Source: an uncultured Acidaminococcales bacterium
Lineage (GTDB): Bacteria > Bacillota > Negativicutes > Acidaminococcales > JAISLQ01
DNA: 64,000 nt
Direction of reading: 5' to 3'
NCBI GenBank assembly: GCA_964551985.1
Contig: CAZKFG010000001.1
Location: 40,181-104,180, forward strand
The translations under genes and the position numbers were made by a program. Positions 3,826 through 33,605 of this stretch are shown here, one piece after another. The notes under the pieces were generated by a model. It was not told the origin of the DNA. It made no database searches and worked only from the letters and a program-made list of their open reading frames with translations. The first letter of the stretch is position 1. Each line of letters opens with the position of its first letter.

Positions 3826-3827
3826 TG

Positions 3828-3955: not shown

Positions 3956-4004
3956 TAATTATGTATGAAAGTAATTTTAAAAAATTTTTAGAGGAGAGAT
4001 TATA

Positions 4005-5198: not shown

Positions 5199-5226
5199 GA
5201 GTTTTTTACCAAGAAGGAGGGATATT

Positions 5227-6489: not shown

Positions 6490-6493
6490 AAGC

Positions 6494-6985: not shown

Positions 6986-6999
6986 GAGGAGGTATTGTT

Positions 7000-8160: not shown

Positions 8161-8186
8161 AATAAAACTGGAGGTTAGTGTAATCA

Positions 8187-9301: not shown

Positions 9302-9334
9302 ATTAAAAATATTTTAAAAGAGGTATATTAAAAA

Positions 9335-10426: not shown

Positions 10427-10469
10427 TAGTAGTTTTATTTTTCAAAATGGTATGTAGGGAGTTGATTAT

Positions 10470-11156: not shown

Positions 11157-11168
11157 GAGGTGTATGTG

Positions 11169-12164: not shown

Positions 12165-12233
12165 TTTTTATTATTGTAATTGTTTTATCAAAGGAGCATA
12201 TAAAAAATATGTATTTTTGAGGACGGTGATAAT

Positions 12234-13487: not shown

Positions 13488-13513
13488 AATAATAAAAATC
13501 AGGAGGGGTGTAT

Positions 13514-14881
13514 ATGAATTACAGCAGTATTTTAGCTAACTATGTTGCAAATACTAATTATAATAATATTCCAAAAGAAACTATCGAGTGGACAAAAAAA
13601 ATTATGCTAGATACTCTATCTTGCGCAGTAGCAGGTTTTACAATGGCACCGGAAGAATGCGGCTGGATAGATAAAATAGTTCAAGAAATGGGCGGGTCGC
13701 CTGATGCTACAGTTTGGAAGACTGGTCTTAAAACATCAACTATGAATGCTGCACTCGCCAATGCAACAATGATTCATACAGTTGATTTTGATGATACACA
13801 TTTAGAGTCAGTTGCGCATTTAGGTGCAGGTATACTTGCCACAGCTTTTGCTGTCGGCGAAAAGCAAAAAGCTGGCGGCAAAGAAGTAATAACTGCTTTT
13901 GTTTTAGGTTTTGAAATAGCCTCTAGAGTCGGAAACGCTGTCAACAAATTCGGACGCACACATTATAAATATTGGCACCCTACGGCAACAATGGGTACAA
14001 TCGGCGCTGCGATTACTGCGGCTAAGCTAATGAAACTATCAGCTAAAGGCATTGAACAAGCACTCGGACTTGGCGTAGATCAAGCTGTAGGCTTTAGGTA
14101 TTGCATTGATAAAGGAGACTATTCAAAAAGTTTACATCCTGGCTTTGCAGCCATGCGCGGCGTTCTTTCAGCACACATAATAGCTGTTGGTGCAAATGGT
14201 CCAGAAGGTTTATTAGAATACGAAACAGGTTTTTGCAGTGCAATGGCAAATCCACCAACAATGGAGTGCCTAACTGAAGAACTTGGTGAAAAATATTATA
14301 TTATGACAGATTCACTCAAATTTTTCCCCACTATCCACTGTAGTCATACAGGTATAGAAGGTATGATTAACATTGTAAATAAACACCAACTAAACCATAA
14401 AGAGATAGCAAGCATTGACATTAAAGTCACCGAGCTTGCCAAAGGTCAAGGCATGACCTTTGACCCACAAACAACTCTCGCCGCTCGGCTAAGCATTCCT
14501 TATTCAGTAGCTACTGCCGCAGTAAAAGGCAATTTAACTCTTAAAGATTTTGATGAAATAAGTTTAAAAAATAAATATGTGCGGCAACTAATGCAAAAAA
14601 TAACTATTGATTCTGAGCCTAAGTTCAATAAAGAATACCCTAAAGGTCTTGTTACACAGCTTAAAGTTAAAACTTTATCAGGGCAAGAGTATGAAGAGTT
14701 GATTGTCTATCCTAAAGGTCATCCCGAAAGACCTGTTACAGATAAGGATATATTTGATAAATACGAATTTTTAAGCACAATTACTTGGAATAAAGAAAAA
14801 TCAGATAATATTAAAGCCCATATGCTGGCTTTAGATAGCATTAACGATATTTCCGATTTTATTAAGCAAGTAGTTTCTTAA
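13514..14881 (+). CDS. MmgE/PrpD-family protein (2-methylcitrate dehydratase / cis-aconitate decarboxylase superfamily)
   Basis: About 455 aa. LDTLSCAVAG, IHTVDFDDTH and YWHPTATMGTIGAA are typical of PrpD/MmgE. The track start is GTG 13508; the ATG at 13514 follows AGGAGGGG. Confidence 0.85.
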   Translation: MNYSSILANYVANTNYNNIPKETIEWTKKIMLDTLSCAVAGFTMAPEECGWIDKIVQEMGGSPDATVWKTGLKTSTMNAALANATMIHTVDFDDTHLESVAHLGAGILATAFAVGEKQKAGGKEVITAFVLGFEIASRVGNAVNKFGRTHYKYWHPTATMGTIGAAITAAKLMKLSAKGIEQALGLGVDQAVGFRYCIDKGDYSKSLHPGFAAMRGVLSAHIIAVGANGPEGLLEYETGFCSAMANPPTMECLTEELGEKYYIMTDSLKFFPTIHCSHTGIEGMINIVNKHQLNHKEIASIDIKVTELAKGQGMTFDPQTTLAARLSIPYSVATAAVKGNLTLKDFDEISLKNKYVRQLMQKITIDSEPKFNKEYPKGLVTQLKVKTLSGQEYEELIVYPKGHPERPVTDKDIFDKYEFLSTITWNKEKSDNIKAHMLALDSINDISDFIKQVVS

Positions 14882-14903
14882 AAAATCATAAGGAGCGAGC
14901 AAT

Positions 14904-15587
14904 ATGAGTCACGAAAATAAATTATGCGTAGTTAAGGCAAGCAAAAGCCACGGCCCTGCACCAATTCCTGTAGAAGGAAAGTGGGTAGCTGTACAAAATA
15001 TCACTGATATTTCAGGTGTAACACACGGTTGCGGTAAATGTGCTCCGCAAATGGGGACTTGCAAACTAACACTTAATGTAAAAGCAGGTATCATCCAAGA
15101 AGCACTAATTGAAACTACCGGTTGTTCGGGCATAACACAAGCAGCTACAATGGCTGTCGAAGTTATGCCAGGGAAAAATTTGCTGGAAATTTTGAATACT
15201 GATTTACTATGTGATGCGATAAACGAATCAATGAGACAGTTGTTCAATCAGATGATTTACGGACGCAGTCAAACATCTTATTCATTAGACGGATTAGCCG
15301 TTGGCGCTTGTTGGGAAGATTTAGGCGCTGGTGCTTGGAGCCAAGTGGGTACAACTTATGGCACTTTAGCAAATGGTCCTCGTTATTTGGCTGTAAATGG
15401 TGGCTATGTTACGCGTATGGCACTAGACGAAAAACAAGAGGTTATTGGCTATGAGTATGTGAACATTGCAAAACTAATGAGCTCAATAGATGACGGCAAA
15501 GAGCCCAACCAAGCTTATACTCAAGCATTAACTACCTATGGCAGATTTTCTGAAGCAAAAAAATATATAAATCCGCGTAAAGAATAG
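14904..15587 (+). CDS. IscU/NifU-N-like Cys protein with an unknown C-terminal domain (copy 2)
   Basis: Paralogue of 10470-11156, roughly 60% identical by eye. HGCGKCAPQMGT, GCSGITQ and CDAINESM are conserved. Confidence 0.6.
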   Translation: MSHENKLCVVKASKSHGPAPIPVEGKWVAVQNITDISGVTHGCGKCAPQMGTCKLTLNVKAGIIQEALIETTGCSGITQAATMAVEVMPGKNLLEILNTDLLCDAINESMRQLFNQMIYGRSQTSYSLDGLAVGACWEDLGAGAWSQVGTTYGTLANGPRYLAVNGGYVTRMALDEKQEVIGYEYVNIAKLMSSIDDGKEPNQAYTQALTTYGRFSEAKKYINPRKE

Positions 15588-15598
15588 GAGGCGGTATA

Positions 15599-16594
15599 AT
15601 GATTAGTTTTGAATGTTACGAACTGAGAAAACCAGCTATAGATAAATGTTTGGCAAAATATAACATAAAAAGCTTACAAGAAGCTGATGAACTCTTAAAA
15701 GCTAAAGATATAGACATTCACAAAATTATAAAAGGTATCCAGCCAATATGTTTTGAAGATGCTTGCTGGGCATATGTTTTAGGTGGGGCTATCGCTTTAA
15801 AAAGCGGCGAAAAAGATCCTTATGTTCTAGCTAAAATTATCGGCGAAGCTCTGCAAGCATTTTGCACTCTAGGTTCAGTCGCAGACCAACGCCAGATAGG
15901 TATAGGTCACGGTGAGCTTGCTGCAAGATTGCTCAATGAAAAAACAAATTGCTTTGCAATGGTTGCAGGTCATGATTCTTTTGCTGGAGCTGAAGGAGCA
16001 AATGCTATAACAAATTCTGTAAAAACAGTAAGAAAAAATCCACTACAAGTTATACTACTAGGTCTTGGCAAAGATGCCGCCTATATGATTGCTCGCATTA
16101 GCGGTTTTACTTATGTACAAACAGATTTTAACCATACAACAGGCGAACTTACAACAATTGGCAAAACTGCCTTTTCTGATGATATTCGTGCCAAAGTTAA
16201 ATGCTATGGCGCTCACAGCGTTGATGAAGGTGTTGCTATAATGAAAGAAAATAAAGCTGATGTTTCCATTACAGGCAACGCCACGAATATGAGTCGTTTT
16301 ACAATCCCTGTTGTAGGCACATACAAAAAATGGTGTAATGACAATGGTAAAAGCTATTTTTCTGTAGCATCAGGCGGCGGTACTGGCAGAACCATAAACC
16401 CAGATGAAGCAGGAGCTGGTGCGGCATCTTATGGTCTGACTGATAATCTTGGAAAAATGCATGCAGATGCTCAATTTGCAGGCTCGTCATCAGTTCCAGG
16501 TCACGTTGAAATGATGGGTTATATAGGAATGGGCAACAATCCTATGGTTGGTGCTACTGTAAGCATAGCTGTAAAAATATCCGAACTTTATTAA
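15599..16594 (+). CDS. GGGtGRT-motif protein, copy 2
   Basis: Paralogue of 11169-12164. ASGGGTGRT and AQFAGSSSVPGHVEMMGYIGMGNNPMVGATV are conserved. Confidence 0.75.
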   Translation: MISFECYELRKPAIDKCLAKYNIKSLQEADELLKAKDIDIHKIIKGIQPICFEDACWAYVLGGAIALKSGEKDPYVLAKIIGEALQAFCTLGSVADQRQIGIGHGELAARLLNEKTNCFAMVAGHDSFAGAEGANAITNSVKTVRKNPLQVILLGLGKDAAYMIARISGFTYVQTDFNHTTGELTTIGKTAFSDDIRAKVKCYGAHSVDEGVAIMKENKADVSITGNATNMSRFTIPVVGTYKKWCNDNGKSYFSVASGGGTGRTINPDEAGAGAASYGLTDNLGKMHADAQFAGSSSVPGHVEMMGYIGMGNNPMVGATVSIAVKISELY

Positions 16595-16626
16595 CAAAAA
16601 ATTTATCAAACATAGGAGCTTGAAAA

Positions 16627-17526
16627 ATGAAACAAAAAATTGATATTATTGAGGTAGGACCACGTGATGGCTTTCAAAATATCGCCGAATACATACCTAT
16701 GCAAACAAAAATGGATATTATTGAAGGTCTGATAGATGCAGGTGTTAAAAGTATGCAATTTACCTCATTTGTCAATCCTAAAGTAATACCACAACTAAAA
16801 GATGCTAAAGAGATTTCTGAAAAATGCTTGGCAAAATATCCAAACTTAGAACTATATGCTCTTGTGCCAAATGCTAAAGGCGCTAAAATAGCCGTTGATG
16901 TTGGCATGAAAAAGGTTTCTACTGTCGTCTCTCTTAGCGAAACACATAATCTTGCCAACATCAAAAGCTCGCACGTCCAATCTATCGAAGGCTTACTGGA
17001 AATAAAAAATAACTTTCCTGAGCTTAAAGTATGCATAGATTTAGCAACTGCTTTTGGTTGCCCGTTTGAAGGAATACCAAGCATTCAAAAACTTGTTGAC
17101 TTTGTCGGCAGGATAAGCGCTCTTGGCTTTCGTGAATTTAATATCTGTGATACAATTGGTATAGCTAATCCAAAGCAAGTTAGGCACACAATGAAAAAAC
17201 TTATTGCAACATTTATTGACTGTCAATTCCAAGTACATATTCACGATACACGCAATATGGGTATGGTAAATACACTATCTGCTATCGAAAGTGGCGTAAC
17301 GCAAGTACAAACTACACTTGGCGGACTTGGCGGATGTCCCTTTGCACCAGGCGCTTCTGGTAACACCGCAACAGAAGACCTTGTTTACATGCTAGAACAA
17401 ATGGGCTATGATACAGGAATAAATTTTGATAAATTGCTTACTCTTGCTAAATATGAGCGTGAAGCTATACCTAGCGGTTGTTACAGCGGTCACCATATGA
17501 ACATTAGCAAAAGTTGCAGCGTCTAA
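16627..17526 (+). CDS. HMG-CoA-lyase-family (HMGL-like) lyase
   Basis: IIEVGPRDGFQN at the N-terminus, HIHDTRNMG, and GLGGCPFAPGASGN. 299 aa, the canonical size. Confidence 0.85.
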   Translation: MKQKIDIIEVGPRDGFQNIAEYIPMQTKMDIIEGLIDAGVKSMQFTSFVNPKVIPQLKDAKEISEKCLAKYPNLELYALVPNAKGAKIAVDVGMKKVSTVVSLSETHNLANIKSSHVQSIEGLLEIKNNFPELKVCIDLATAFGCPFEGIPSIQKLVDFVGRISALGFREFNICDTIGIANPKQVRHTMKKLIATFIDCQFQVHIHDTRNMGMVNTLSAIESGVTQVQTTLGGLGGCPFAPGASGNTATEDLVYMLEQMGYDTGINFDKLLTLAKYEREAIPSGCYSGHHMNISKSCSV

Positions 17527-20022: not shown

Positions 20023-20673
20023 TCAAAAAGTAATAAACTTAATATTTTCTGAGATAATTAAATCTGCTTCTGTTGCTGCAACAACATCTTCTATACTAAC
20101 TTCTTTATCAATTTCTTTAAGTATTAGACCATCATTCGTTTTTTCTATTACAGCCATTTCAGTAATAATTAAATCCACTTGATTTACAGCTGTAAATGGC
20201 AGGCGGCATTTATTTAGTATTTTTGCCTCTCCTTTAGAAGTATGTTCCATTGCTATAATTACTTTTTTAGCACCAACAACCAAATCCATTGCACCACCCA
20301 TTCCAGGCACTTTTTTGCCTGGAATAATCCAATTAGATAAATTACCGTACTTGTCAACCTCCAAAGCGCCTAAAACGGTTGCTGCTAAGTGTCCTCCACG
20401 AATTATACCAAATGATGTTGCACTATCAAAGCATGCCGCACCAGCAATCATAGTAACAGGAATTCCCCCTGCATTAACTATATCTTTATCTTCTTTACCT
20501 TTGGCAGGACTAGGACCAACACCTAAAAAACCGTTTTCAGAGTGTAAGACTATATTTACACCTTCAGGCAAATAGTTCGCAACTAGTGTAGGAATACCAA
20601 TACCCAAATTTACGTAATCATTATTTACAAATTCTTTTGCTGTACGTCTAGCAATTTTTTCTTTAGCATCCAT
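20023..20673 (-). CDS. atoA: Acetate/3-oxoacid CoA-transferase subunit B (AtoA/CtfB/ScoB-like)
   Basis: HSENGFLGVGP (catalytic Glu motif). 216 aa, adjacent to the A subunit. Confidence 0.85.
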   Translation of the reverse strand: MDAKEKIARRTAKEFVNNDYVNLGIGIPTLVANYLPEGVNIVLHSENGFLGVGPSPAKGKEDKDIVNAGGIPVTMIAGAACFDSATSFGIIRGGHLAATVLGALEVDKYGNLSNWIIPGKKVPGMGGAMDLVVGAKKVIIAMEHTSKGEAKILNKCRLPFTAVNQVDLIITEMAVIEKTNDGLILKEIDKEVSIEDVVAATEADLIISENIKFITF

Positions 20674-20677
20674 TTTA

Positions 20678-21334
20678 TCACCTCTCGTCTACAACCAAAT
20701 AGTCCACAAAAATGCCTGGTGTTACAACATGTTCTGGCTCAATCTCACCAACCTCTACCAATTGTTCAATTTCAGCAATGACAATTTTGGCTGCACTAGC
20801 CATAAGTGGGTTAAAGTTCCTCGCTGAAGCACGATAAACAAGGTTTCCCATTTTATCAGCTTTATATGCTTTAATTAAAGCAATATCTGCTAATAACGGT
20901 AATTCTAGTAAATATTCCTTATCCTCTATTTTTATTATTTGCTTACCCTCTTGGACAATAGTCCCAACACCTGTTGGTGTTAAAAATCCACCAAGTCCAA
21001 ATCCTGCACATCGTATTTTCTCTGCTAGAGTGCCTTGTGGAATTAAATTTACTGTAACTTTACCATTATTCATTTGCTCGCCAGTTTTGGGATTAGTGCC
21101 AATATGACTTACATATAATGTAGATATTTGTTCGTTATCAATAAGTTTACCAATAGCTCTATCTATAAAAGCTGTGTCATTAGCAATAACAGTTAGATTG
21201 TTAACAGGTCTTATCGATAGCTGTTCTAAGATTAAATCTGGACTACCACAGCCTAAAAAACCACCTATCATTAAAGTAGATTTAGTTTGAACAAAATCCG
21301 CTGCTTGAATATCTGTTATAATTTTTACTGTCAC
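20678..21334 (-). CDS. atoD: Acetate/3-oxoacid CoA-transferase subunit A (AtoD/CtfA/ScoA-like)
   Basis: IGGFLGCGSP, ANDTAF, SHIGTNP and GLGGFLTPTGVGT closely match E. coli AtoD as recalled. GTG start after AGGAGG. Confidence 0.85.
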   Translation of the reverse strand: MTVKIITDIQAADFVQTKSTLMIGGFLGCGSPDLILEQLSIRPVNNLTVIANDTAFIDRAIGKLIDNEQISTLYVSHIGTNPKTGEQMNNGKVTVNLIPQGTLAEKIRCAGFGLGGFLTPTGVGTIVQEGKQIIKIEDKEYLLELPLLADIALIKAYKADKMGNLVYRASARNFNPLMASAAKIVIAEIEQLVEVGEIEPEHVVTPGIFVDYLVVDER

Positions 21335-21404
21335 CAGTACACCTCCTAATCACAAAAAATCGGTTAAAATAGCAAACGAAAAAAATATTCGTTTGCTATT
21401 TTAT

Positions 21405-21779
21405 TTATCCTTGATTGACTGCCTCACTAGAATTTTCTCTTGCTGGTGTATAGATAACAAGAAATGTTGCCGCGTCTGTTTGGCAAATAACTTTATGAAG
21501 GCTATTTTTAAAGAATATAATAAAATCGTCTTTTCCCAAAACAACATCATCACCATCGCCAGTAACTTTTAGCTGACCACTTAACACAAACATACACTGT
21601 TCAAACTCTGAATGAAAATGTGCTTTTGCATGACCTGTTTTACCCATTTTCCCATATATAACCTCTATATGTTCAGCGCCATCTTTTGGACCAATAAGAC
21701 GCCTGTTAAAAGTATCATCGTGTCCTGGTGGCGTATATTCTTTTATCTCTTTAAAAGAAACTTTTTTGTATCGATTCAT
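21405..21779 (-). CDS. Cupin-domain protein
   Basis: 124 aa. GHAKAHFHSEFEQCMFVLSG matches the cupin motif-1 pattern. Confidence 0.75.
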   Translation of the reverse strand: MNRYKKVSFKEIKEYTPPGHDDTFNRRLIGPKDGAEHIEVIYGKMGKTGHAKAHFHSEFEQCMFVLSGQLKVTGDGDDVVLGKDDFIIFFKNSLHKVICQTDAATFLVIYTPARENSSEAVNQG

Positions 21780-21794
21780 TCTATGCCTCCAAAT

Positions 21795-22889
21795 CTAGTC
21801 TGGAAATCTTTGACCCACTTTTTCGCCTTGCTTTTCTTTGCGTTCTTTCAAGCCCTTACGTTTAAAATCTTCGTTTGCTTTTGTTAAAAGCTTACCGTGT
21901 ACAATACAGTCAGACCGAAGTCTCCTACCTATTGTCCGCTCCAGTTGTCTACCTAATGTAATAATTTGATCCATATCAATACCTGTTTCAATGCCCATCT
22001 CTTGCATCATCATAAGCATATCTTCTGTATTGACAAGTCCAACAGCATTTGGACAATTATAATAGTAGCTACCAGTACCACGAATTGGAGTATCATCCAT
22101 AAAGTTTGCTGGTTGCCCGCCAAGTCCACCCAAAGTGCTTTCAAAATTAGTTATTCCTGCTTGTAGAGTTGCCAATACATTTGCCATGCCCCAACCACGT
22201 GTCTCGTGAAAATGTGCTATATGCACTTTAGTGTCTGGTATAGCATCTAAAAGACTAGAAAAATAACTATAAACTTTATCCGGAGAAGATGACCCATCAT
22301 GATCAGCATGCTCCACATCATCAGCACCAATATCTAGCCATTTTTTAGTAAATAAAATTGCGTCAGAAAATTTCGTTGGTCCAGAAATTGGGCTACCCCA
22401 AATAGTACTTACTGTTCCATTCACCTTTATTCCAGCGTCATGAGCTTTTTGGATGCATCGTTCTGCTTCTTTCCAATATTCAGGTAAAGTTGTACCAGAA
22501 TTAGCATAATGATGCTCTTCGTCTGTTGACACCATCATCAATATCCTATCAGGACCAACGCCTTGTTTTTTCAATTCAATGGCTCTATCTACTGCAGACT
22601 CACGAATTGTTACGCAAGTTATTTCGACATCTTTCATGTCAATTCCAAATCTTGAAATATTTTTGCTATTTCTAAGACGCTCTAGCAGAATTTGCGCATC
22701 TTTAAATTGCGGCATGTTAGTAGGATTACCAAGATTTGTCAATTCTATTTTTCTTAAACCAGCAATTATAAGTTGCTCTGCATAATACAACTTTGCCTCA
22801 GTAGAAATAAACTTTTCTTCATGCTGAAAACCATCACGAATTGTAATGTCACCAATACTTACCTTTTTTGGATATTTAAAAACTGACAT
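21795..22889 (-). CDS. HMGL-like (pyruvate carboxyltransferase fold) lyase with a Lys/Glu-rich C-terminal extension
   Basis: DITIRDGFQHE, HFHETRGWG and GGLGGQP motifs. About 364 aa. The ATG at 22889 follows GGGGG; the track start is 22904. Confidence 0.8.
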   Translation of the reverse strand: MSVFKYPKKVSIGDITIRDGFQHEEKFISTEAKLYYAEQLIIAGLRKIELTNLGNPTNMPQFKDAQILLERLRNSKNISRFGIDMKDVEITCVTIRESAVDRAIELKKQGVGPDRILMMVSTDEEHHYANSGTTLPEYWKEAERCIQKAHDAGIKVNGTVSTIWGSPISGPTKFSDAILFTKKWLDIGADDVEHADHDGSSSPDKVYSYFSSLLDAIPDTKVHIAHFHETRGWGMANVLATLQAGITNFESTLGGLGGQPANFMDDTPIRGTGSYYYNCPNAVGLVNTEDMLMMMQEMGIETGIDMDQIITLGRQLERTIGRRLRSDCIVHGKLLTKANEDFKRKGLKERKEKQGEKVGQRFPD

Positions 22890-22915
22890 AATAAAAACCC
22901 CCATTTAAAATATTT

Positions 22916-24127
22916 TTATCCCTCATTTACCCCTAAAGCACCAGCTTTTTTGAATTGTTCAATTTTTTCTTTATTAAAGCCAAGTACTTTTTCTAATATT
23001 TGTTCACTATGCTCACCCAATAATGGTGGTCCTTTGCGAATAGTTGTTACTGTATCAGAAAATCTTATTGGACAAGCAATTGCTTTCATCGTCTGACCAC
23101 TTGGTGTATGCATATCAACAATCATTTCTCTATCTTCTACAATGTGCTTATCTGTTACGATTTTGTCTACAGTATAAATAGGTGCACTAGGTATACTATT
23201 TTTCAAAAGCAAATCGACAATATCTGCTACAGTTTTATCTTTAGTCCACAAAACAACTTCTTTGGTCAATTCTGCATGGTTTTTTACTCGATTTGGATTA
23301 TGTTCATATTTTTTATTTGCTAACAAATCCAACCTGTTAATAGTTTTACAAAACCTTTCCCAGACGGCGTCATTGCCAACAGCTATAACTACCCATCCAT
23401 CTAGAGCTTCAAAGGTATCATAAGGGCAAATAAATTCATACCTGTTGCCCGTTCTACCAGGAACTCGACCTTCCACAAGATAAATTTGCAGCAGTGTCTC
23501 CATTGAACTTACAACACAATCTACCAATGATACATCTATAGATTGCCCTTTGCCAGTGTTATTACGACTGTTTATCGCTGCCAAAATACCAATACAACAA
23601 TTAAGTCCGCCTAAAATATCACCCATTGCTGTACCGCTTCTAGTTGGTGGAGAAGTTGGCCAACCACTAACGCTCATAAGTCCACCCATTGCTTGACCTA
23701 TAATGTCATAACCTGGTCTTTGCGAATAACAACCAGTTTGACCAAAGCCAGAAATTGAAGCAAAAATAATTTTCTCATTGATTTTTTTCAGTTGCTCATA
23801 ATCAGCACCTAACTTTTTCATCGTACCAGGCTTATAGTTTTCCACAATAACATCTGCTGTTTTGACAAGCTCAAAAAAAACCTCTCTACCTTTTTGATTT
23901 TTCAAATCCAAAGTTATACTGCTTTTATTTCTATTCATATTGCCAAAATAAGCGCTAAAACCATCCGGCAAAAATGGCGGATAACCTCTTGTATCATCAC
24001 CTTTACTAGGTTCTTCAATCTTTATAACTTCTGCACCCATGTCGGCTAAAAGCATAGTACAAAAAGGTCCTGCTAAAACCCGGCTCAAATCAACTATTTT
24101 TATGCCCTCTAACGCACCTTTTAACAA
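22916..24127 (-). CDS. Family III (CaiB/BaiF-type) CoA-transferase, paralogue of 4005-5198
   Basis: IKIVDLSRVLAGPFCTMLLADMGAEVIKIE and YDIIGQAMGGLMSVSGWP. TTG at 24127 follows GTGAGGTG and aligns with the paralogue's N-terminus; the track start is GTG 24136. Confidence 0.9.
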   Translation of the reverse strand: MLKGALEGIKIVDLSRVLAGPFCTMLLADMGAEVIKIEEPSKGDDTRGYPPFLPDGFSAYFGNMNRNKSSITLDLKNQKGREVFFELVKTADVIVENYKPGTMKKLGADYEQLKKINEKIIFASISGFGQTGCYSQRPGYDIIGQAMGGLMSVSGWPTSPPTRSGTAMGDILGGLNCCIGILAAINSRNNTGKGQSIDVSLVDCVVSSMETLLQIYLVEGRVPGRTGNRYEFICPYDTFEALDGWVVIAVGNDAVWERFCKTINRLDLLANKKYEHNPNRVKNHAELTKEVVLWTKDKTVADIVDLLLKNSIPSAPIYTVDKIVTDKHIVEDREMIVDMHTPSGQTMKAIACPIRFSDTVTTIRKGPPLLGEHSEQILEKVLGFNKEKIEQFKKAGALGVNEG

Positions 24128-24141
24128 AGCTATCACCTCAC

Positions 24142-24573
24142 TTATTTTTTAGTAATCTCAATAATGCCTCTATCTCCATCAACTTTAACCCAATCACCTG
24201 TTTTGACAATTTCTATAATATTTTTGTCAAATCTATCAACTATTGGCATTACCTTATCATAGAGTTTTTTTCCTAAAATAGAGCCAACAGCTATAAGTCC
24301 TTCTGTTTCCATATTCAAAATAGCTTTTGGTGCATTATTGCATCTTATAGTTTCTAACATCCAAGTTGATGTGCTAGTTGAACCTTTGCCATATGGGTAA
24401 ATTAAAACGGTATCTTTAACGCAAATACCATTTAGAGGAACTCTCACATCATCAATATTCCCAGTTGCAGGATCAACTCCGTGCGACCAAACAAGCGCAA
24501 CATCACTAACCAAGGCTTGTCCTTCAACTATACCACCAACTATTTTTCGTCCTTTTAAAATAATTTTCTCCAT
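24142..24573 (-). CDS. Aconitase X swivel-domain small subunit (DUF126)
   Basis: About 143 aa. GRKIVGGIVEGQALVS...DPATGNI...YPYGKGSTSTSTWMLE...NAPKAI is the DUF126 pattern. It sits directly after the DUF521 gene. Confidence 0.8.
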   Translation of the reverse strand: MEKIILKGRKIVGGIVEGQALVSDVALVWSHGVDPATGNIDDVRVPLNGICVKDTVLIYPYGKGSTSTSTWMLETIRCNNAPKAILNMETEGLIAVGSILGKKLYDKVMPIVDRFDKNIIEIVKTGDWVKVDGDRGIIEITKK

Positions 24574-24588
24574 TATCTTTACCATCCT

Positions 24589-25803
24589 TTAAGCTAATAT
24601 AGCCTTTACGCAATCATCAACAGACGCGTAAATCAATCCCACACCATGTTCGGAAGGCAAATAACTAGCAAATTTACCAGAATCAGTAATAATAGTCTTA
24701 TACCCACGAGGAAATGGGCTAATAACAAGGCAACTAGATGTTAATATTTTTATACCTGCTTGTTTTAAATTGTGTATTATATCCATTCTTTCGGCAGTAT
24801 TATAAGTAGCAAATGGCGTATATACCCAAAACTCTTTGTTAGGCTTTACCTTTTTCCCTTGCACTAAATCCGCTAACATCTTTAATTCCCAAATAGAATA
24901 ATGAGGACAACCAACAACTGCAATCTCTGGTTCACCAGACGATGATGTAGTCATTTGTTTTTGAGTGCTTTTAATATCCTCATATGTCCAGGTAATTTCT
25001 TGTTCCGGTTTTTGACCAGCAAACGGGTCTTTACCTGTGGCCTCTGGTGTTACTCCTAAAATATGATAAAGTGCTACACTGCCACTTGATGCTGCTGCCG
25101 CACCAAGATATTTTAAATTATCACTTGTGCAATTTATTGGAACACCATCAAAAGCACAAATTTTTGTACCAGCAAATTTCCCTAACATAATTCCTAAAGT
25201 GTTATAATCTAACATAGTCAATTCTTTAACTTGTAAATTTATTTTTACTGTTGCTATGCGATTTTCATCTAAATACATACGTTCTTTAGGAATTCTACCA
25301 GTAATAGCGGCACAAATAGCTAAACCTGCCGGAGTTCTGTTTGTTCTTGCTCCAATAACAGAATTTGCATAAGAGACAGCGGAAGATTCTGCCCAAGCAA
25401 TATTTTCACCAAAGCGTGGCACAACGCCAACATTATAAGGAGTGCAACTCCATGTCAAAACTTCTCCTAACTGCTTTACTGCTTGTGCCATTTTTAATTG
25501 CTTATTAGCATATTTACTGTCAAAGCCTTCTTGTTCCCAACTATCGAAAGGAATTGATGCTGGATCTTGTGTTGTTGGCACACAACACTTCCCACCCAAA
25601 CCAGCTAATTTTTCCAACCACTGTAACCCAGCATCGTGTACAGAGCCATAATGCGCCATTGCCTGTACAGATGCCACTGGGATGAAACATTGTGCACCAA
25701 AAGCTTCTGCTAAATCCAACAACACTTCCATTGCAATTTGAACAGCTTCACCGTTTTTACCATCTAACATTTCTCGCTCTGTAGTAGTTAACCTAACTGT
25801 CAT
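24589..25803 (-). CDS. Aconitase X catalytic large subunit (DUF521)
   Basis: N-terminal LTTTEREMLDGKNGEAVQIAMEVLLDLAEAFGA is typical of DUF521. About 404 aa. The ATG at 25803 follows AGAGGTGGA; the track start is 25848. Confidence 0.8.
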   Translation of the reverse strand: MTVRLTTTEREMLDGKNGEAVQIAMEVLLDLAEAFGAQCFIPVASVQAMAHYGSVHDAGLQWLEKLAGLGGKCCVPTTQDPASIPFDSWEQEGFDSKYANKQLKMAQAVKQLGEVLTWSCTPYNVGVVPRFGENIAWAESSAVSYANSVIGARTNRTPAGLAICAAITGRIPKERMYLDENRIATVKINLQVKELTMLDYNTLGIMLGKFAGTKICAFDGVPINCTSDNLKYLGAAAASSGSVALYHILGVTPEATGKDPFAGQKPEQEITWTYEDIKSTQKQMTTSSSGEPEIAVVGCPHYSIWELKMLADLVQGKKVKPNKEFWVYTPFATYNTAERMDIIHNLKQAGIKILTSSCLVISPFPRGYKTIITDSGKFASYLPSEHGVGLIYASVDDCVKAILA

Positions 25804-25885
25804 ATTTCCACCTCTTGCAATATTAATTTTTCTAGCTTTGAAATCCATGTAGTGTTCTTAATGCTTTTGTATTCCATAGTTATAA

Positions 25886-25901
25886 AGCAAAAACCGTGCC
25901 A
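25886..25901 (-). promoter_or_regulatory. Sigma-54 (-24/-12) promoter of the AcnX operon
   Basis: The minus strand reads TGGCACggtttTTGCT with GG/GC 12 nt apart, about 85 nt upstream of the ATG at 25803. It is divergent from a sigma-54 activator gene. Confidence 0.8.
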
Positions 25902-26025: not shown

Positions 26026-26062
26026 TACAATAAAGTATTCCTTAAATCAAGTGAGGTTTTTT

Positions 26063-27481
26063 ATGAGTAGAACAAATAACCTTGATACTTTTTTCAATAT
26101 GCTCCTAAACCCTAACGGTGTCTCATATAGTATATTAACCTCCATCCCAACAGCCATGATTATAGCAGATGCAAAATTCAAGATACGTTTTGCCAATGAA
26201 AAGTATTTAAAACTTATAAATCACCAAAAACAAGATTTATTAGATAAATACTTATACGAGGTACGCCCAGAAACCAATCTTCAACAAGTAATTCATACAG
26301 GTCAAACGAGAACTGATATATTAAGCAAAACAATATCAAATACTGTTGTAGATATGTCCATTCCTTTGTTTTACAAAAATAAGATTGTTGGTGGAATATC
26401 ATTTTTAAAAGAAAATCAACGTATTTTGCAATTAAATCAAAATCTCGAAAAAGCCATTAGTCTAAATAAAAGCCTCTCTTTAGAACTAACATCATTTAAA
26501 AACAATTTATACAGTGCTAAACATTCATTTAAAGATATCATAGGTAAATCAAAATCTTTTTCAAAAGTTATAGAAGTGTCTAAAAAAGTTGCTTCTTATG
26601 ATACCGACATATTGATAATTGGCGAAAGTGGCACAGGCAAAGAATTATTTTCTCAAGCTATACACAACCACAGCCCAAGAAATAATATGCCTTTCATTCC
26701 TGTAAACTGTTCTACACTTACACCAAATTTAATAGAAAGCGAGCTTTTTGGTTATGAACCAAATTCTTTTACAGGAGCAGACAAAAATGGTAAAATAGGT
26801 TTATTTATGATGGCTAATAAAGGAACTATAATGTTAGATGAAATAGGTGAATTACCTTTTGATTTGCAAGCTAAGCTACTGAGAGTATTGCAAGAGCGCA
26901 AAATAAGAAAAATCGGTAGCACATCAGAGCACCCAATAGATGTAAGAGTAATCGCAGCAACAAATAAAGATTTATCATCGCTAGTTAAAGCAGGTACTTT
27001 TAGAGAAGACTTGTATTATAGGTTAGCAGTCTTTACATTAAAATTGCCCAGCCTAAGAGACAGGCTTGATGACATACCAATGCTAGCTGATTATCTTTTA
27101 GAAGAATGGAACTGCAAATACGGCAGAGCACTAAAGTTTTCTCAAAAAACATATAAAAATATGGCTTATCAAACATGGCCAGGTAATATAAGAGAGTTAA
27201 GAAATGCCGTATATTTCGCTGCTTATACTTGTGACAATGATATTATTAACGAGCTACCAATGCAAACATATTCTCTTGAAAAAGATACAATTAATGACGA
27301 TATTTCTAACGAGCCAATTATTGATGAACATACATCTTTAAAAGAGTATGTAGAAACATATGAACTCAAAATAATAAAAGCAATGCTCAAAAAATATGGA
27401 GACACTCTCGAAGATAAAAAGAAAATTGCTGATATTTTAAAAATATCAATACCAACTCTTTATAATAAATTGAAAACTTAA
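26063..27481 (+). CDS. Sigma-54-dependent transcriptional activator (PAS + AAA+ + HTH)
   Basis: Walker A GESGTGKE, the ESELFGY...SFTGA loop (NSFTGA variant), RVIAATN, and a C-terminal HTH. The track start is GTG 26051. Confidence 0.9.
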   Translation: MSRTNNLDTFFNMLLNPNGVSYSILTSIPTAMIIADAKFKIRFANEKYLKLINHQKQDLLDKYLYEVRPETNLQQVIHTGQTRTDILSKTISNTVVDMSIPLFYKNKIVGGISFLKENQRILQLNQNLEKAISLNKSLSLELTSFKNNLYSAKHSFKDIIGKSKSFSKVIEVSKKVASYDTDILIIGESGTGKELFSQAIHNHSPRNNMPFIPVNCSTLTPNLIESELFGYEPNSFTGADKNGKIGLFMMANKGTIMLDEIGELPFDLQAKLLRVLQERKIRKIGSTSEHPIDVRVIAATNKDLSSLVKAGTFREDLYYRLAVFTLKLPSLRDRLDDIPMLADYLLEEWNCKYGRALKFSQKTYKNMAYQTWPGNIRELRNAVYFAAYTCDNDIINELPMQTYSLEKDTINDDISNEPIIDEHTSLKEYVETYELKIIKAMLKKYGDTLEDKKKIADILKISIPTLYNKLKT

Positions 27482-27595: not shown

Positions 27596-27632
27596 AACAC
27601 ATACCTATTGAAACTAGGTATGTGTTAATTTT
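27596..27632. terminator. Terminator hairpin between the convergent activator and TRAP genes
   Basis: AACACATACCT-attgaaact-AGGTATGTGTT, flanked by A-rich and T-rich runs. Confidence 0.6.
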
Positions 27633-28912
27633 TACATTTGATTAGGTAGCCATAAAATAATCTCAGGGAAAGCCATAAATATTATTAAAGAAATTACACA
27701 AGCAATTAAAAGCACCATTGAACCTTTAAATGCTGTCCCGAGCTCTATTTTCCCAACGGAACTTACGATAAAGACATTAAGACCTACTGGTGGAGTAACC
27801 AACCCAATCTCTACTAAAACAATCGCAATCACACCAAACCAAATTGGGTCAAAACCTAAAGATTGTACAACTGGAAAAACCATCGGAAGCGTAAGCATCA
27901 AAATAGCTATTTGATCCATTATGCAACCCAAAGCTAAATATAAAACTACCAAAAGCATCATAATAACCCAACGATTAACCTCTAAAGATGATATTATCTG
28001 TACAATATATTGTGGAATTTGGCTAATAGTCAAATAATATCCAAAAATCGTTGCACAAATTATTATTACAAATATTGTACCTGTTGTATTTATAGTGGAC
28101 ACAACAGCTTTTACAATTCCACTTTTATCAAGTCTTCTCATTCCTATACCAATCAAAAGTGCACCTAAAGCACCTATTGCCGCACTTTCTGTTGGCGTTG
28201 CAAAACCAGAGTAAATAGAACCAATCACTATTGCAAATAGCACAAGCACAGGAAATACTGCCTTGACACTGGCAAATCTATCTTGCCAAGAAAAAGCTGG
28301 AATACTAGGACAAATACTAGGATTAATTTTTACCCATATTATAATTGTTGCTGCCAAAATAATTGTTGAAATAATTCCAGGAACAAGTCCAGCAATTAAA
28401 AGCTTACCAACAGAAGTTTCTGTAGCTGTACCAAATATGATCATAGGTACACTAGGAGGAATTAATACGGCTAAAGTACCTGCGACAGCAACCGAACCGG
28501 CTATTAATTCATCTTTATATTTTAATTTTTGCATCTCCGGCACTACAACAGACGACATAGCAGCCGCTGTTGCAGTGCTAGAACCACACATTGCACCAAA
28601 CCCAGCATTTGCAAAAACTGTTGCAATTGCTACTCCACCTGGTAAATGACCAAACCACTTATATGCAACTTGGAATACATCTCGTGTTATATTAGAATTT
28701 GTAATAAATCCTGCCATCAAAATGAACAACGGTACAGTTGTTAAAGTGTAGTGTGCCGCACTCCTAAAGGGTGATGTTCCCACAATCCCTAAGACACTGT
28801 CTAAACCACCAATCATCCAAATACCAATTATTCCGGTTATACCCATAGAAAAAGCAACCGGAAGACCTATCATTAACAAAATCAACATTAAAAATAATGG
28901 AATTAAAATCAT
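27632..28912 (-). CDS. TRAP transporter large permease (DctM), system 2
   Basis: 426 aa, polytopic, a typical DctM profile. It follows the DctQ gene. Confidence 0.9.
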   Translation of the reverse strand: MILIPLFLMLILLMIGLPVAFSMGITGIIGIWMIGGLDSVLGIVGTSPFRSAAHYTLTTVPLFILMAGFITNSNITRDVFQVAYKWFGHLPGGVAIATVFANAGFGAMCGSSTATAAAMSSVVVPEMQKLKYKDELIAGSVAVAGTLAVLIPPSVPMIIFGTATETSVGKLLIAGLVPGIISTIILAATIIIWVKINPSICPSIPAFSWQDRFASVKAVFPVLVLFAIVIGSIYSGFATPTESAAIGALGALLIGIGMRRLDKSGIVKAVVSTINTTGTIFVIIICATIFGYYLTISQIPQYIVQIISSLEVNRWVIMMLLVVLYLALGCIMDQIAILMLTLPMVFPVVQSLGFDPIWFGVIAIVLVEIGLVTPPVGLNVFIVSSVGKIELGTAFKGSMVLLIACVISLIIFMAFPEIILWLPNQM

Positions 28913-28931
28913 TTTATCCCCCCATTCATAC

Positions 28932-29450
28932 TTAATGATCTAACTTAATCCAACCAAAGAGAGTTTGAACGCCTCTAACGCAAACCAAAACAGAACCTAT
29001 TGTGACCATCAAATACGCTGGTGCCATAGGATAAGCTAAAGCTGATGCACTATGTTCACTATTTTGAAAAGCTTCCAATACTGGTGGAATTGAGCAGTAT
29101 GCTATAAAAGCAAACATAGCAATACCAACTAAAGTATTAAATAAGGCTAATTTCTCTTTAATTTTTTTAGGGAAAAATCGCTCTATCAATTCTACTTTTA
29201 TGTGTCCTCCGTGAACGTATACATAACTAAGCGGCATATAAATTATTGCCACCATAAAATATTCTTCACTAAGCTCCAACACGCCAACAAGTGGCGCTCT
29301 GAAAAAATATCTTAAAATAGTGTCTAAACTAGTGATAAACATTAATGCCAACAATGCAGTCCCCGCAACAAATAGGCATAATTGTTCTACTTTATCAATT
29401 ATACTTTTGTTTTTATCAGCTTCTTGAATCATAACAAACTCACTTTCCAT
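28932..29450 (-). CDS. TRAP transporter small permease (DctQ), system 2
   Basis: About 170 aa with 4 predicted helices, located between the DctP and DctM genes. Confidence 0.8.
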   Translation of the reverse strand: MESEFVMIQEADKNKSIIDKVEQLCLFVAGTALLALMFITSLDTILRYFFRAPLVGVLELSEEYFMVAIIYMPLSYVYVHGGHIKVELIERFFPKKIKEKLALFNTLVGIAMFAFIAYCSIPPVLEAFQNSEHSASALAYPMAPAYLMVTIGSVLVCVRGVQTLFGWIKLDH

Positions 29451-29468
29451 TGCTTTAAAGTAGCAATA

Positions 29469-30539
29469 CTATTTTTTGCTATTAGCAACTGATTTTTCAA
29501 CTTCTGCAATTTTAGCTCTTGTTGCATCTAATACTTTTTGAGCTGGAAGCCCTTTGGCGCTTTGGGTTTTTACCCAATTTTGTACAACTGGATCTGTGGC
29601 ATCTCTAAATGCTTTTTGTTCGGCATCATTTAACACATATACTTTCATACCACTTTGTTCATATTTTTTTTGATAATCTTCCCCAGATTTTGTAACATAA
29701 TCACCTAAGGCAATTGTAGCCTCTAAACCGCAATCTAATATAAGTTTTTGCAAATCTTTTGGTAAAGCATTGAAACTTTTTTCATTAATACAATAAGTAG
29801 CTATCCAACCATTCATATTAACACCTTTAGTTGCCATTTTTAAAACTTCTTGCATTTTATATTGGTCTAGTGCTTCAAAAGCTAATACGCAACCATCAAC
29901 AGTACCTCTATATGTTGCTTCATACATCTCTTGTGGCACTATGTTGACCGCTGCACCGCCCATATTACCCATACCCATTTCTGCCGACACTCCTGGCACT
30001 CTAAACCTCATTCCTTTTACGTCTGTAGGTTTTGTTATAAATTTACTAGAATTATAAAATAAATCATTTGGATTATACGCCATATTAAATACTGGTCTTA
30101 TTTTATGCTTTTTAAACTCTTCATCATACAAAATACCTTGACTTAAATGCCAGAAAGCTTCTGCCCCAACTCTTGATGTCGGATATATTCCTGGTAAATC
30201 AAATACATTACTCAAAGGCACTTTTCCGCTCACATATGAAGGACCGACAACAGCTACATCTACAACACCATTTTTGACAAGTTCTATCATATCTACTTGT
30301 TTACCCAATTGACCACCTGGAAAATGTTCAAATTTTATACGTCCTTTTGATCGTTCTTCTACCATTTTCATAAACTTATTCAATCCATTCACCGTGAAAA
30401 AATGTGTTGCAGGAAAAGCATCCGCCACTTTTAGTTTATAAACCTTTGTATCATCTTTTTTCTCTGCCTGTTGTCCACAACCACCAACCATAATTAAAAC
30501 CACAACCAATAATACTGCAAAAATTTGTTTGCTTTTCAT
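29469..30539 (-). CDS. TRAP substrate-binding lipoprotein (DctP family), system 2
   Basis: The ATG at 30539 follows AAAGGAGAG and gives MKSKQIFAVLLVVVLIMVGGCG (lipobox). The body is DctP-like. The track start of 30626 is an upstream extension. Confidence 0.85.
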   Translation of the reverse strand: MKSKQIFAVLLVVVLIMVGGCGQQAEKKDDTKVYKLKVADAFPATHFFTVNGLNKFMKMVEERSKGRIKFEHFPGGQLGKQVDMIELVKNGVVDVAVVGPSYVSGKVPLSNVFDLPGIYPTSRVGAEAFWHLSQGILYDEEFKKHKIRPVFNMAYNPNDLFYNSSKFITKPTDVKGMRFRVPGVSAEMGMGNMGGAAVNIVPQEMYEATYRGTVDGCVLAFEALDQYKMQEVLKMATKGVNMNGWIATYCINEKSFNALPKDLQKLILDCGLEATIALGDYVTKSGEDYQKKYEQSGMKVYVLNDAEQKAFRDATDPVVQNWVKTQSAKGLPAQKVLDATRAKIAEVEKSVANSKK

Positions 30540-30660
30540 AACTACTCTCCTTTTATCATTTTTTTGAGTTTTAATCACTACGTACATTTTTTTAACTTTT
30601 CTGTTTTTTGTTAAAATTTTATACATACTATTTTTTATAATTTATATATTTTATTTTTTT

Positions 30661-30687
30661 AAAACGCATCTTTTAAAGATGCGTTTT
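30661..30687. terminator. Hairpin separating the two TRAP systems
   Basis: AAAACGCATCTT-tta-AAGATGCGTTTT. Confidence 0.55.
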
Positions 30688-30707
30688 AAAATTTAAGTAT
30701 CTTCTTA

Positions 30708-31724
30708 CTACTTTTGACTTGCTTTAACTTTTTGTAAAAATTCTTCTCCAACAACTTTACCAAGTTTTTCATAAACTGGTATTACCGCTTTAACCCAAGT
30801 CTCTTTTTGTTCACTAGTTAAAATATATACTTGACCACCTTTTTGTTTAATTTCTTCAACTGCTTTTTTACTTGCTTCATCAACAACTTCATGATGCTTT
30901 TTCTCAGCATCCTTCATGTGTTTTAAAACTTTAACTTTGATATCATCTGGTAATCCTTCTAAAAATTTTTTGTTAGCCAATTGGGTAATAACCGTAGAAT
31001 GAACAAATGCATCAAGATAATACTTTGTAACCTCAAATAAATTTCTCTCTTTTACAGAAACAGGTCCAATATCAGCTGCATCAATCATTCCTCTTTGCAT
31101 AGCAACAAAAATGTCTCCAGCTGGCAAATCCACAGGAGAGGCACCAACTGCAAGCCATGTCAATGAACCATCGCCCAAGCTTCTAACCTTAAGACCTGTG
31201 GCATCTTGAGGTAAGACAACTTGTTTTCCATTTGTAATAATACTGTATGGCCCAGTAGCGGCAGAGGCTAAACACACAATACCCTTTTGTTCTAGTGGCT
31301 GCCAAATTTCTTTTGCTAAATCACTTGTTAAAAATTTATTCATAGAGTTAACATTATTAAATAAAAATGGTAAATCAAATGTAGTAACCTTAGGGCTTAT
31401 AGCTGCTAGATACCAGTTTGCCAGTGAAATCATCTCTACATCGCCTCTGGCAACAGCATCTAATGCTTCAGCAGGTTTATAAAGCTGTGAAGCTGGATAT
31501 AGCTTTACCGTAACCTTCCCTTTTAATTCAGGATCAGCATCAACTAATTTTTTAAAAGTTTCTGGTACAACTGACATAGTACCATTTGCTGGCATGTCAT
31601 AAGACCAGCGTATTTCGATTGCTTTTGTTTTTTTCTCACTACCACCACACCCAATAAAAAGCATAGAAATCAGCAAACAAACCACCATAGACACTAATGT
31701 TTTTTTATTTTTGAAAAGAATCAT
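30708..31724 (-). CDS. TRAP substrate-binding lipoprotein (DctP family), system 1
   Basis: Signal plus lipobox LLISMLFIGCGG. DctP-like body. RBS AGGAGGGAG. Confidence 0.85.
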   Translation of the reverse strand: MILFKNKKTLVSMVVCLLISMLFIGCGGSEKKTKAIEIRWSYDMPANGTMSVVPETFKKLVDADPELKGKVTVKLYPASQLYKPAEALDAVARGDVEMISLANWYLAAISPKVTTFDLPFLFNNVNSMNKFLTSDLAKEIWQPLEQKGIVCLASAATGPYSIITNGKQVVLPQDATGLKVRSLGDGSLTWLAVGASPVDLPAGDIFVAMQRGMIDAADIGPVSVKERNLFEVTKYYLDAFVHSTVITQLANKKFLEGLPDDIKVKVLKHMKDAEKKHHEVVDEASKKAVEEIKQKGGQVYILTSEQKETWVKAVIPVYEKLGKVVGEEFLQKVKASQK

Positions 31725-31742
31725 TTTTCTCCCTCCTAAATT

Positions 31743-33589: not shown

Positions 33590-33605
33590 AGCAAATTTCA
33601 TGCCA
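33590..33605 (-). promoter_or_regulatory. Sigma-54 (-24/-12) promoter of TRAP system 1
   Basis: The minus strand reads TGGCATgaaatTTGCT with GG/GC 12 nt apart, about 65 nt upstream of the start at 33526. Confidence 0.7.

Follow-up and report, generated by a model that had tools for sequence, protein, structure and literature searches.

An aconitase X clade that matches neither characterised function, in operons predicted to degrade an unsaturated branched dicarboxylate

Operon and proposed pathway

An operon encoding a two-subunit aconitase X (AcnX) was analysed in a 64-kb stretch of DNA, called the window below, from an uncultured Acidaminococcales bacterium (assembly GCA_964551985.1, contig CAZKFG010000001.1, positions 40,181 to 104,180). 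Comparison of its residues and of related loci indicates that this AcnX matches neither characterised function of its family. We propose, with medium confidence, that the operon degrades an imported unsaturated branched dicarboxylate, likeliest the C6 acid 3-methylglutaconate, in a strictly anaerobic low-GC bacterium. A broader proposal, which we make tentatively, is that the whole AcnX clade would act as a hydratase of free 3-methylglutaconate or a close enoate. This would be a third AcnX function, as part of a modular anaerobic pathway that leads into an unrecognised subtype of 3-hydroxy-3-methylglutaryl-coenzyme A (HMG-CoA) lyase. Hydration in such a pathway would be carried out either by AcnX on the free acid or by a crotonase on the CoA ester, activation by a CaiB-type transferase or a SucCD-like ligase, and cleavage by an HMGL-like lyase or by AtuA with AtuA_ferredoxin.

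In the route proposed for the window, a carboxylate transporter would import the acid, a TRAP system here and DASS/CitMHS carriers in relatives. The two-subunit AcnX, probably a [4Fe-4S] enzyme, would then hydrate the α,β double bond of the free acid, yielding 3-hydroxy-3-methylglutarate (HMG). This step would be the reverse of the conversion of mevalonate-5-phosphate to anhydromevalonate-phosphate, with a carboxylate in place of the phosphate ester; HMG can be regarded as isosteric with mevalonate 5-phosphate, the carboxylate standing for CH2-O-phosphate. The family III CoA-transferase would turn HMG into HMG-CoA, which the divergent HMGL-like lyase would split into acetyl-CoA and acetoacetate. 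AtoDA would convert acetoacetate to acetoacetyl-CoA, and a thiolase encoded elsewhere would complete the route. On balance, one C6 acid and two H2O would give three acetate equivalents in a redox-neutral sequence that conserves one thioester, which would suit a fermenter. The unsaturated acid is also the probable substrate of the cupin, which could for instance be a cis/trans or double-bond isomerase; its co-occurrence with the other genes suggests such a role. A preliminary description, prepared from the sequence of the window alone, had put forward essentially this pathway; the comparative evidence presented below largely favours it and also leaves a credible C5 rival.

Seven open reading frames (ORFs) on the minus strand, within 20023–25848, make up the operon, and both their coordinates and their Pfam families agree with the preliminary description. 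In transcription order they encode the AcnX large subunit (24589–25803, ORF to 25848; PF04412, 449 bits), the small (swivel, domain 4) AcnX subunit (24142–24585; PF01989, 70.6 bits), a family III (CaiB-type) CoA-transferase (22916–24136; PF02515, CoA_transf_3, 438 bits), a divergent HMG-CoA-lyase-like DRE-TIM lyase of a ‘long’ type (21795–22889, ORF to 22904; PF00682), a small metal-binding cupin (21405–21779; Cupin_2), subunit A of a 3-oxoacid/acetate CoA-transferase (AtoD-like, 20678–21334) and subunit B of a 3-oxoacid CoA-transferase (AtoA-like, 20023–20673), the last two matching the Pfam family CoA_trans. Relatives are metagenome-assembled genomes of Acidaminococcales/Negativicutes. The real start of the AcnX large subunit is probably at 25803, since its relatives are 404 amino acids long and a ribosome-binding site, AGAGGTGG, lies 5′ of Met16 of the ORF. 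Likewise, the HMGL-like gene probably starts at 22889, because a 100 % identical database protein has 364 amino acids.

The intergenic gaps, in the same order, are 3, 5, 11 (or 26), 15, 70 and 4 nt. The range of 3–70 nt given earlier is correct, but a 16-bp hairpin in the 70-nt gap between the cupin gene and atoD (21365–21403), detected in a scan for terminator-like elements, had gone unmentioned. Because of this hairpin, which may be an attenuator or a processing site, atoDA could be partly uncoupled from the upstream genes in the window. The distance from cupin to atoD is only 14 nt in one related locus (L033).

Pocket residues of AcnX

The two AcnX subunits, both scoring above the family cut-offs and encoded 3 nt apart, represent the two-subunit Type-II form. 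The best PDB match of the large subunit was TkAcnX (223 bits), the archaeal mevalonate-5-phosphate dehydratase of Thermococcus kodakarensis (PDB 7cnr/7cns), which like the Aeropyrum pernix enzyme is of Type-IIb. We mapped the residues described by Watanabe et al. 2021 (PMC8184944) onto HMMER alignments of the window subunits. The Fe-S cysteines Cys120, Cys299 and Cys358 align with TkAcnX Cys110, Cys283 and Cys342 and are invariant in the clade to which the window AcnX belongs. Also conserved are Glu139, Ser140, Ser141, Lys377 and Tyr381, equivalent to the residues of TkAcnX that bind the carboxylate and the C3 hydroxyl (Glu129, Ser130, Ser131, Lys361 and Tyr365), and the catalytic Ser69-Thr70 of the small subunit aligns with TkAcnX Ser62-Thr63. 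In TkAcnX, these Glu, Ser, Ser, Lys and Tyr residues together with the Ser-Thr pair hold the carboxylate and the C3 hydroxyl and abstract the C2 proton (PMC8184944). The reaction proposed for the window enzyme is the same dehydration/hydration chemistry on a 3-hydroxy-3-methyl acid, run in the direction of hydration.

In contrast, the phosphate site of TkAcnX is lost. Where TkAcnX has Gly48-Val49-Ser50, Asn53 and Asn79, the window enzyme has Met49-Ala50-His51, Ser54 and Asp80; its loop is also shorter by one residue. With its phosphate-binding residues replaced, a bacterial host and a catabolic context of CoA enzymes, the window AcnX differs from the Type-IIb dehydratases. It shares family, fold, catalytic Ser and the carboxylate- and hydroxyl-binding residues with the other characterised type, the cis-3-hydroxy-L-proline (C3LHyp) dehydratase AtAcnX, but has the three Cys ligands of Type-II enzymes, and the hydroxyproline landmarks Asp203, Ile206, Trp35 and Thr72 are replaced by Ala48 (or Met49), His51, Ser34 and Ser71. 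Its score against the C3LHyp dehydratase equivalog NF051439 was 284 bits, compared to a cut-off of 700 bits. From these replacements, the window AcnX is predicted to have neither characterised function; the preliminary description had reached this view from gene context, and the residues bear it out.

That AcnX nevertheless has one of the two known functions, its neighbour genes being unrelated, is very improbable. Family membership and the match to TkAcnX would be accounted for. Such a reading does not fit the replaced landmarks of both functions, the score far below the equivalog cut-off, a neighbour-joining tree in which the window clade stands apart from the C3LHyp and archaeal types, or the synteny with CoA-activating and lyase genes, which is conserved across phyla. 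Nor were proline, hydroxyproline or isoprenoid genes found, as had been noted before, among the larger ORFs searched for families between 416 and ~35700, the several small ORFs of that region and the rest of the window lying outside the search.

Bacterial AcnX subclasses lacking both sets of landmarks have been listed as Type-IIc to Type-IIf and await characterisation (Watanabe et al. 2021, PMC8184944). The window clade, of bacterial two-subunit enzymes without either set, appears to fit this description. The third AcnX role suggested in the preliminary description agrees with the absence of both landmark sets, but a further function for the family had already been anticipated by this literature. 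No third characterised function was found in a literature search on aconitase X, AcnX and DUF521. PMC8184944 gives Type-IIc to Type-IIf no substrate, pathway or gene context. New relative to the literature found are the conserved context of the pathway, the signature of the pocket, the replacements of whole modules and the substrate hypothesis. No publication was found that joins hydration of 3-methylglutaconate to a CoA-transferase and HMG-CoA lyase.

Natural replacements of AcnX

The strongest evidence that AcnX would be a hydratase acting upstream of the lyase comes from two loci in which it is missing. In L122 (GCA_031552765.1, 1–12304) the activator (72 % identity to that of the window), DctP1 (76 %), DctP2 (75 %), DctM1 (85 %), the long lyase (81 %) and the cupin (68 %) are all kept. 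AcnX, CaiB and AtoDA are absent; instead, the locus encodes a crotonase-family enoyl-CoA hydratase, a second HMGL-like protein of 325 amino acids and a SucCD-like ligase. Since crotonase and ligase take the places of AcnX and CaiB, AcnX would be the hydratase for the imported unsaturated acid. The simplest reading is that one and the same acid would be hydrated and then activated in the window, and activated and then hydrated in L122. The preliminary description had placed AcnX as a free-acid hydratase before the lyase; this exchange fits that prediction.

The kind of hydratase in L122 also bears on the substrate. Crotonases are the family of 3-methylglutaconyl-CoA hydratase, and the hydratases of mesaconyl-CoA and itaconyl-CoA are of the MaoC type. 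The conversion of 3-methylglutaconate to HMG is favoured because the replacing enzyme is a crotonase and not a MaoC-type protein.

The second locus, L123, consists of activator, CaiB, long lyase and CitMHS genes, with two thiolase genes nearby and with neither AcnX nor cupin. This layout would be expected if the hydroxy acid itself were imported there. The cupin, which accompanies the pathway with or without AcnX, is kept in L122 and absent in L123, which suggests that it is tied to the unsaturated substrate.

The HMG-CoA-lyase-like protein

The lyase retains the metal-binding and catalytic residues of DRE-TIM enzymes: RDG, IELT, HFHETRG and NTED align with the HMG-CoA lyases 1ydo, 6nds and 1ydn. 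The GGCP(Y/F) loop of solved HMG-CoA lyases is replaced by GGLGGQP followed by a 17-residue insertion, with Gln in place of the catalytic Cys, which we take to be Cys266 of the human enzyme. Against PRK05692 (HMG-CoA lyase) the protein scored 163 bits, below the cut-off of 246 bits. Because of the Cys-less loop, the insertion and the low score, we predict a distinct HMGL subtype and not a canonical HMG-CoA lyase. A role as a carboxyltransferase of the 5S/OadA type was considered and rejected (~21 bits, compared to 163 bits for HMG-CoA lyase). This ‘long’ subtype, with its GGQP loop and 17-residue insertion, is widespread in anaerobes.

Orthologues that are 65–70 % identical proved informative in three further loci. 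In Koleobacter methoxysyntrophicus (L038) the gene of the orthologue (69 %) follows that of a degradative NAD-type HMG-CoA reductase (TIGR00532, 486 bits compared to a cut-off of 260 bits) at a distance of 20 nt, and a sigma-54 activator and a TctA transporter also precede it; reductase and lyase resemble the mevalonate-catabolic mvaAB pair of Pseudomonas mevalonii. In Dethiobacter alkaliphilus (L039) and Metallumcola ferriviriculae (L040) the orthologue is clustered with a crotonase, acyl-CoA dehydrogenases and a canonical HMG-CoA lyase, in leucine/isovalerate (Liu)-like clusters; a carboxyltransferase gene is present in the Metallumcola cluster but not in that of Dethiobacter. As the lyase orthologues adjoin HMG-CoA reductase or Liu-like clusters, and as AtoDA recurs, HMG-CoA and acetoacetate are favoured as intermediates. 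The release of acetoacetate by an HMGL lyase, claimed in the preliminary description, is supported by these contexts and by AtoDA, although the enzyme is not a canonical HMG-CoA lyase. The pathway proposed here would share with Liu and mvaAB catabolism its lyase family and the intermediates HMG-CoA and acetoacetate, and would differ from them in its order and enzymes: an Fe-S AcnX would hydrate the free acid, a family III transferase would then activate the product and a divergent lyase would cleave it.

CoA-transferases and cupin

The AtoD-like protein scored 214 bits against TIGR02429 (cut-off 128.5) and 300 bits against the AtoD equivalog, narrowly below the cut-off of 315. The AtoA-like protein scored 303 bits against TIGR02428 (cut-off 243.55) and contains HSENG, the SENG motif with the catalytic Glu. 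AtoDA is thus predicted to be a family I 3-oxoacid CoA-transferase (AtoDA/ScoAB/PcaIJ). CaiB matches PF02515 over all of the model (1–366 of 366 positions) and does not reach an equivalog cut-off. Its best NCBIfam matches, both below the cut-off, were succinyl-CoA:mesaconate CoA-transferase (357 bits) and succinate-glutarate CoA-transferase (349 bits), and human succinate-hydroxymethylglutarate CoA-transferase was among its PDB relatives (272 bits). HMG is favoured as the intermediate because AtoDA passes 3-oxoacid CoA-transferase cut-offs and CaiB resembles the human enzyme. A role of CaiB in carnitine metabolism was rejected (171 bits, compared to 357 bits for the dicarboxylate transferases).

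The ligand residues of the cupin, His54, His56, Glu60 and His95, are conserved in the alignment. The folds nearest to its confident structure model (predicted local distance difference test score 89.6) were those of generic small metal cupins: TM1459, RemF, KdgF and DddK.

The AcnX clade and its gene neighbourhoods

Scans of species-representative genomes and metagenomes yielded 107 loci encoding AcnX relatives, from which 106 large and 92 small subunits were aligned. Essentially the same pocket was present in every sequence 53–100 % identical to the window AcnX, except in L069, L070 and L071 (~51–53 %). It consists of Gln47, Ala or Cys at position 48 (Asp in one locus), Met49, Ala50, His51, Ser54, His56, Thr78, Gln79 and Asp80 in the large subunit, and of Trp33, Ser34, His35, Ser69, Thr70 and Ser or Ala at position 71 in the small subunit. 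Loci of the hydroxyproline type (Arthrobacter, Rhizobiaceae and others) have HID...GTLN, only two cysteines and FWG; the archaeal loci look like TkAcnX in the pocket alignment. The phylogenetic placement called for in the preliminary description, performed with the neighbour-joining tree, put the window AcnX outside both the hydroxyproline and the archaeal groups.

The gene neighbourhoods were surveyed by tblastn across all loci and by Pfam annotation of the contexts of selected loci. Group A comprises eight distinct loci, the window included, with large subunits at least 62 % identical to that of the window. A CoA-activating gene adjoins AcnX in all eight, CaiB-type in seven and SucCD-like in one (L036, on a Thermodesulfobacteriota contig). 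All six loci that extend far enough carry an HMGL-family lyase, five of them of the long type; that of L036 is a canonical HMG-CoA-lyase-family protein (420 bits, cut-off 246). The cupin is found in five of five CaiB-type loci with enough sequence, and AtoDA in three of four (the window, L035 and L033). The transporters vary and may be TRAP, DASS/CitMHS or a 467-amino-acid protein without a Pfam match. A survey of the AcnX-CaiB-HMGL-AtoDA neighbourhood had been proposed in the preliminary description; the combination of AcnX, CoA activation and HMGL lyase is conserved across Negativicutes-type, wastewater and Thermodesulfobacteriota contigs, and AtoDA recurs.

The conserved 467-amino-acid protein is encoded between lyase and cupin in the Acidaminococcales-type loci L004 (at 14078–15481) and L043. 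It is possibly an unclassified carrier, since it occupies the same position as the DASS/CitMHS transporters in L033.

Group B comprises AcnX proteins that are 53–60 % identical to that of the window and have the same pocket, mostly from human-gut and other Clostridia (L001–L003, L008–L015 and L047–L068). In their sigma-54 operons AtuA and AtuA_ferredoxin stand in for CaiB and the lyase, accompanied either by a cupin and a CitMHS/MatC carrier or by a Na+/alanine symporter and an M20 amidohydrolase. One group B AcnX protein was seen on 335 contigs. AtoDA is also present beside AtuA-type genes in the group B locus L049. More distant AcnX proteins (40 % identity; pocket HLVLHSF/TID) were found in L087 and L090, together with two HMG-CoA reductases, CaiB, M20 and AtuA/AtuA_ferredoxin.

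Alternative substrates

Several observations weigh against 3-methylglutaconate as the substrate. Asp80 replaces the phosphate-binding Asn79 of TkAcnX, and a distal carboxylate would not obviously pair with an acidic residue. Compared with HMG-CoA lyases, the lyase has no catalytic Cys, contains an insertion and falls short of the family cut-off. In Dethiobacter and Metallumcola it adjoins a canonical HMG-CoA lyase, so that it may act on another substrate there. The top family match of CaiB is, narrowly, a mesaconate transferase. In a comparison of the DctP proteins with the PDB, where similarity was at the family level only and DctP1 was distant, DctP2 was most like C4-dicarboxylate binding proteins. 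AcnX proteins with the same pocket adjoin AtuA-family proteins in gut Clostridia, and a member of this family has been deposited as a citramalate lyase subunit. The cupin is left without an assigned role. Finally, we know of no environmental source of free 3-methylglutaconate established for such anaerobes.

Some of these observations would be explained by a C5 route, the main rival. Mesaconate, citraconate or itaconate would be imported, AcnX would form citramalate, CaiB would activate it to citramalyl-CoA and the HMGL-like lyase would release pyruvate and acetyl-CoA, with the cupin as an isomerase. Chloroflexus aurantiacus is said to have a comparable pair, a family III succinyl-CoA:D-citramalate CoA-transferase and an R-citramalyl-CoA lyase of the HMGL family. 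The mesaconate match of CaiB, the likeness of DctP2 to C4-dicarboxylate binders and the loss of the lyase Cys all suit this route, as does the sister clade, since the AtuA-family protein in question (PDB 9erq/9evf) is named ‘citramalate lyase, subunit A (cmlA)’ and, according to a preprint, Raoultella planticola has a two-subunit CmlAB that splits citramalate into pyruvate and acetate in a direct reaction.

We nevertheless consider the C5 route unlikely. It would leave AtoDA and the thiolases without a task, yet AtoDA recurs; the lyase orthologues pair with degradative HMG-CoA reductase and Liu-like clusters; and AcnX is replaced in L122 by a crotonase. The window moreover already contains an operon with a LeuCD-type hydratase, PrpF, CaiB and HMGL that fits C5 acids better (see below). 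The AtuA proteins encoded beside AcnX match the deposited CmlA at just 21.5 bits, so that their substrate could differ, and the window itself has no AtuA gene. In group B, where AtuA and AtuA_ferredoxin take the place of CaiB and lyase, the same or a similar tertiary hydroxy dicarboxylate may be cleaved without CoA.

The distal part of the pocket (His51, Ser54, His56, Gln79 and Asp80, with Trp33, Ser34, His35 and Ser71 of the small subunit) is unlike that of any characterised AcnX. It would thus be compatible with a different substrate that is handled by the same logic of hydration, activation and retro-Claisen cleavage: a 3-substituted glutaconate, a β-hydroxy acid, or a compound whose distal amine or hydroxyl pairs with Asp80, examples being anhydromevalonate/mevalonate or a product freed from an amino-acid conjugate. 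The atypical lyase, the Na+/alanine symporter and M20 amidohydrolase of the sister loci, and the distant AcnX with two HMG-CoA reductases, CaiB, M20 and AtuA could all be read in this sense. We find such a substrate somewhat unlikely, as the closest loci carry transporters of the carboxylate type (TRAP and DASS/CitMHS), AtoDA and the thiolases indicate a 3-oxoacid product, most simply acetoacetate, and neither a dehydrogenase nor an aminotransferase is conserved in the operon.

Only two functions have been assigned to aconitase X, and four bacterial subclasses are listed in the literature as unknown; the locus and its relatives provide a concrete hypothesis that names a substrate, the enzymes coupled to it and a candidate inducer system. 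Assignment of the function would annotate many genomes, for relatives number in the thousands, and a single sister protein was seen on hundreds of human-gut contigs. It would also show how branched C5/C6 dicarboxylates are fermented by anaerobes; plant HMG esters, the breakdown of leucine or isoprenoids, and itaconate-type acids are possible sources. Two poorly understood groups, the AtuA family and the HMGL-like lyases of the Cys-less ‘long’ type, would be tied to the same chemistry. If the proposed hydration of 3-methylglutaconate is correct, AtuA-family proteins beside same-pocket AcnX in abundant gut Clostridia would be CoA-independent lyases of the same tertiary hydroxy dicarboxylate, which would give the AtuA family a general function.

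Sigma-54 control and TRAP genes

The window was scanned for exact matches to the sigma-54 consensus TGGCAC-N5-TTGCW, and three were found (25886–25901, 3939–3954 and 59671–59686). The first, TGGCACGGTTTTTGCT on the minus strand, is a −24/−12 promoter that lies 38 nt before the start of the AcnX ORF and 83 nt before the probable start at 25803. A gene for an activator with a PAS domain and a sigma-54 enhancer-binding domain (Sigma54_activat, 226 bits) lies divergently to the operon at 26051–27481 on the plus strand. Orthologues of this activator (46–72 % identity) adjoin the operon in L035, L122, L033 and L004; a PAS/sigma-54 activator accompanies the operon in most group A loci, and a −24/−12 element also precedes the first operon gene in several related loci. 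Given an exact GG-N10-GC promoter at a suitable distance, an activator gene next to it and an element conserved in orthologous loci, the operon is predicted to be sigma-54-dependent and under the control of the PAS activator, as the preliminary description had stated for the promoter.

Two sets of TRAP genes (DctM1-DctQ1-DctP1 and DctP2-DctM2-DctQ2, as assigned by DctP, DctQ and DctM families) are located on the minus strand at 27632–33526. The activator gene and the TRAP genes converge, with a bidirectional 12-bp hairpin (27596–27626) between their ends. A sigma-54-like site with one mismatch to the consensus, TGGCATGAAATTTGCT (33590–33605, minus strand), precedes the first TRAP gene by 64 nt. 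Bounded by these elements, the TRAP genes are predicted to be a transcription unit separate from the AcnX operon. Substrate import by TRAP transporters had been suggested earlier; these genes would form a unit of their own. L035 and L122 are syntenic with the window in this arrangement (DctP1 76 %, DctP2 75 % and DctM1 85–89 % identical). When the regions before the operon and the TRAP unit were compared for a shared upstream activator site, only an 11-mer and a 9-mer emerged, as expected by chance in AT-rich DNA.

The third exact consensus site, TGGCACTAGTATTGCT, lies at 59671–59686 on the minus strand. This site and the two activator genes of the window suggest that the genome uses sigma-54 heavily for organic-acid catabolism.

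A second sigma-54 unit

A second sigma-54 unit, with a logic parallel to that of the AcnX operon, occupies 1891–17526 on the plus strand and has a PrpR-type activator and the exact promoter at 3939–3954. Its genes encode a CaiB paralogue, large and small aconitase-family subunits of the LeuCD/DmdAB type, a PrpF-like isomerase, two Gate-domain membrane proteins, an M20 amidohydrolase, two GGGtGRT proteins, DcuC and a PrpD-like protein. The last gene of the unit encodes a canonical HMG-CoA-lyase-family protein (16627–17526; 263 bits, cut-off 246). C5-branched acids or tricarboxylates may be the compounds that this unit degrades.

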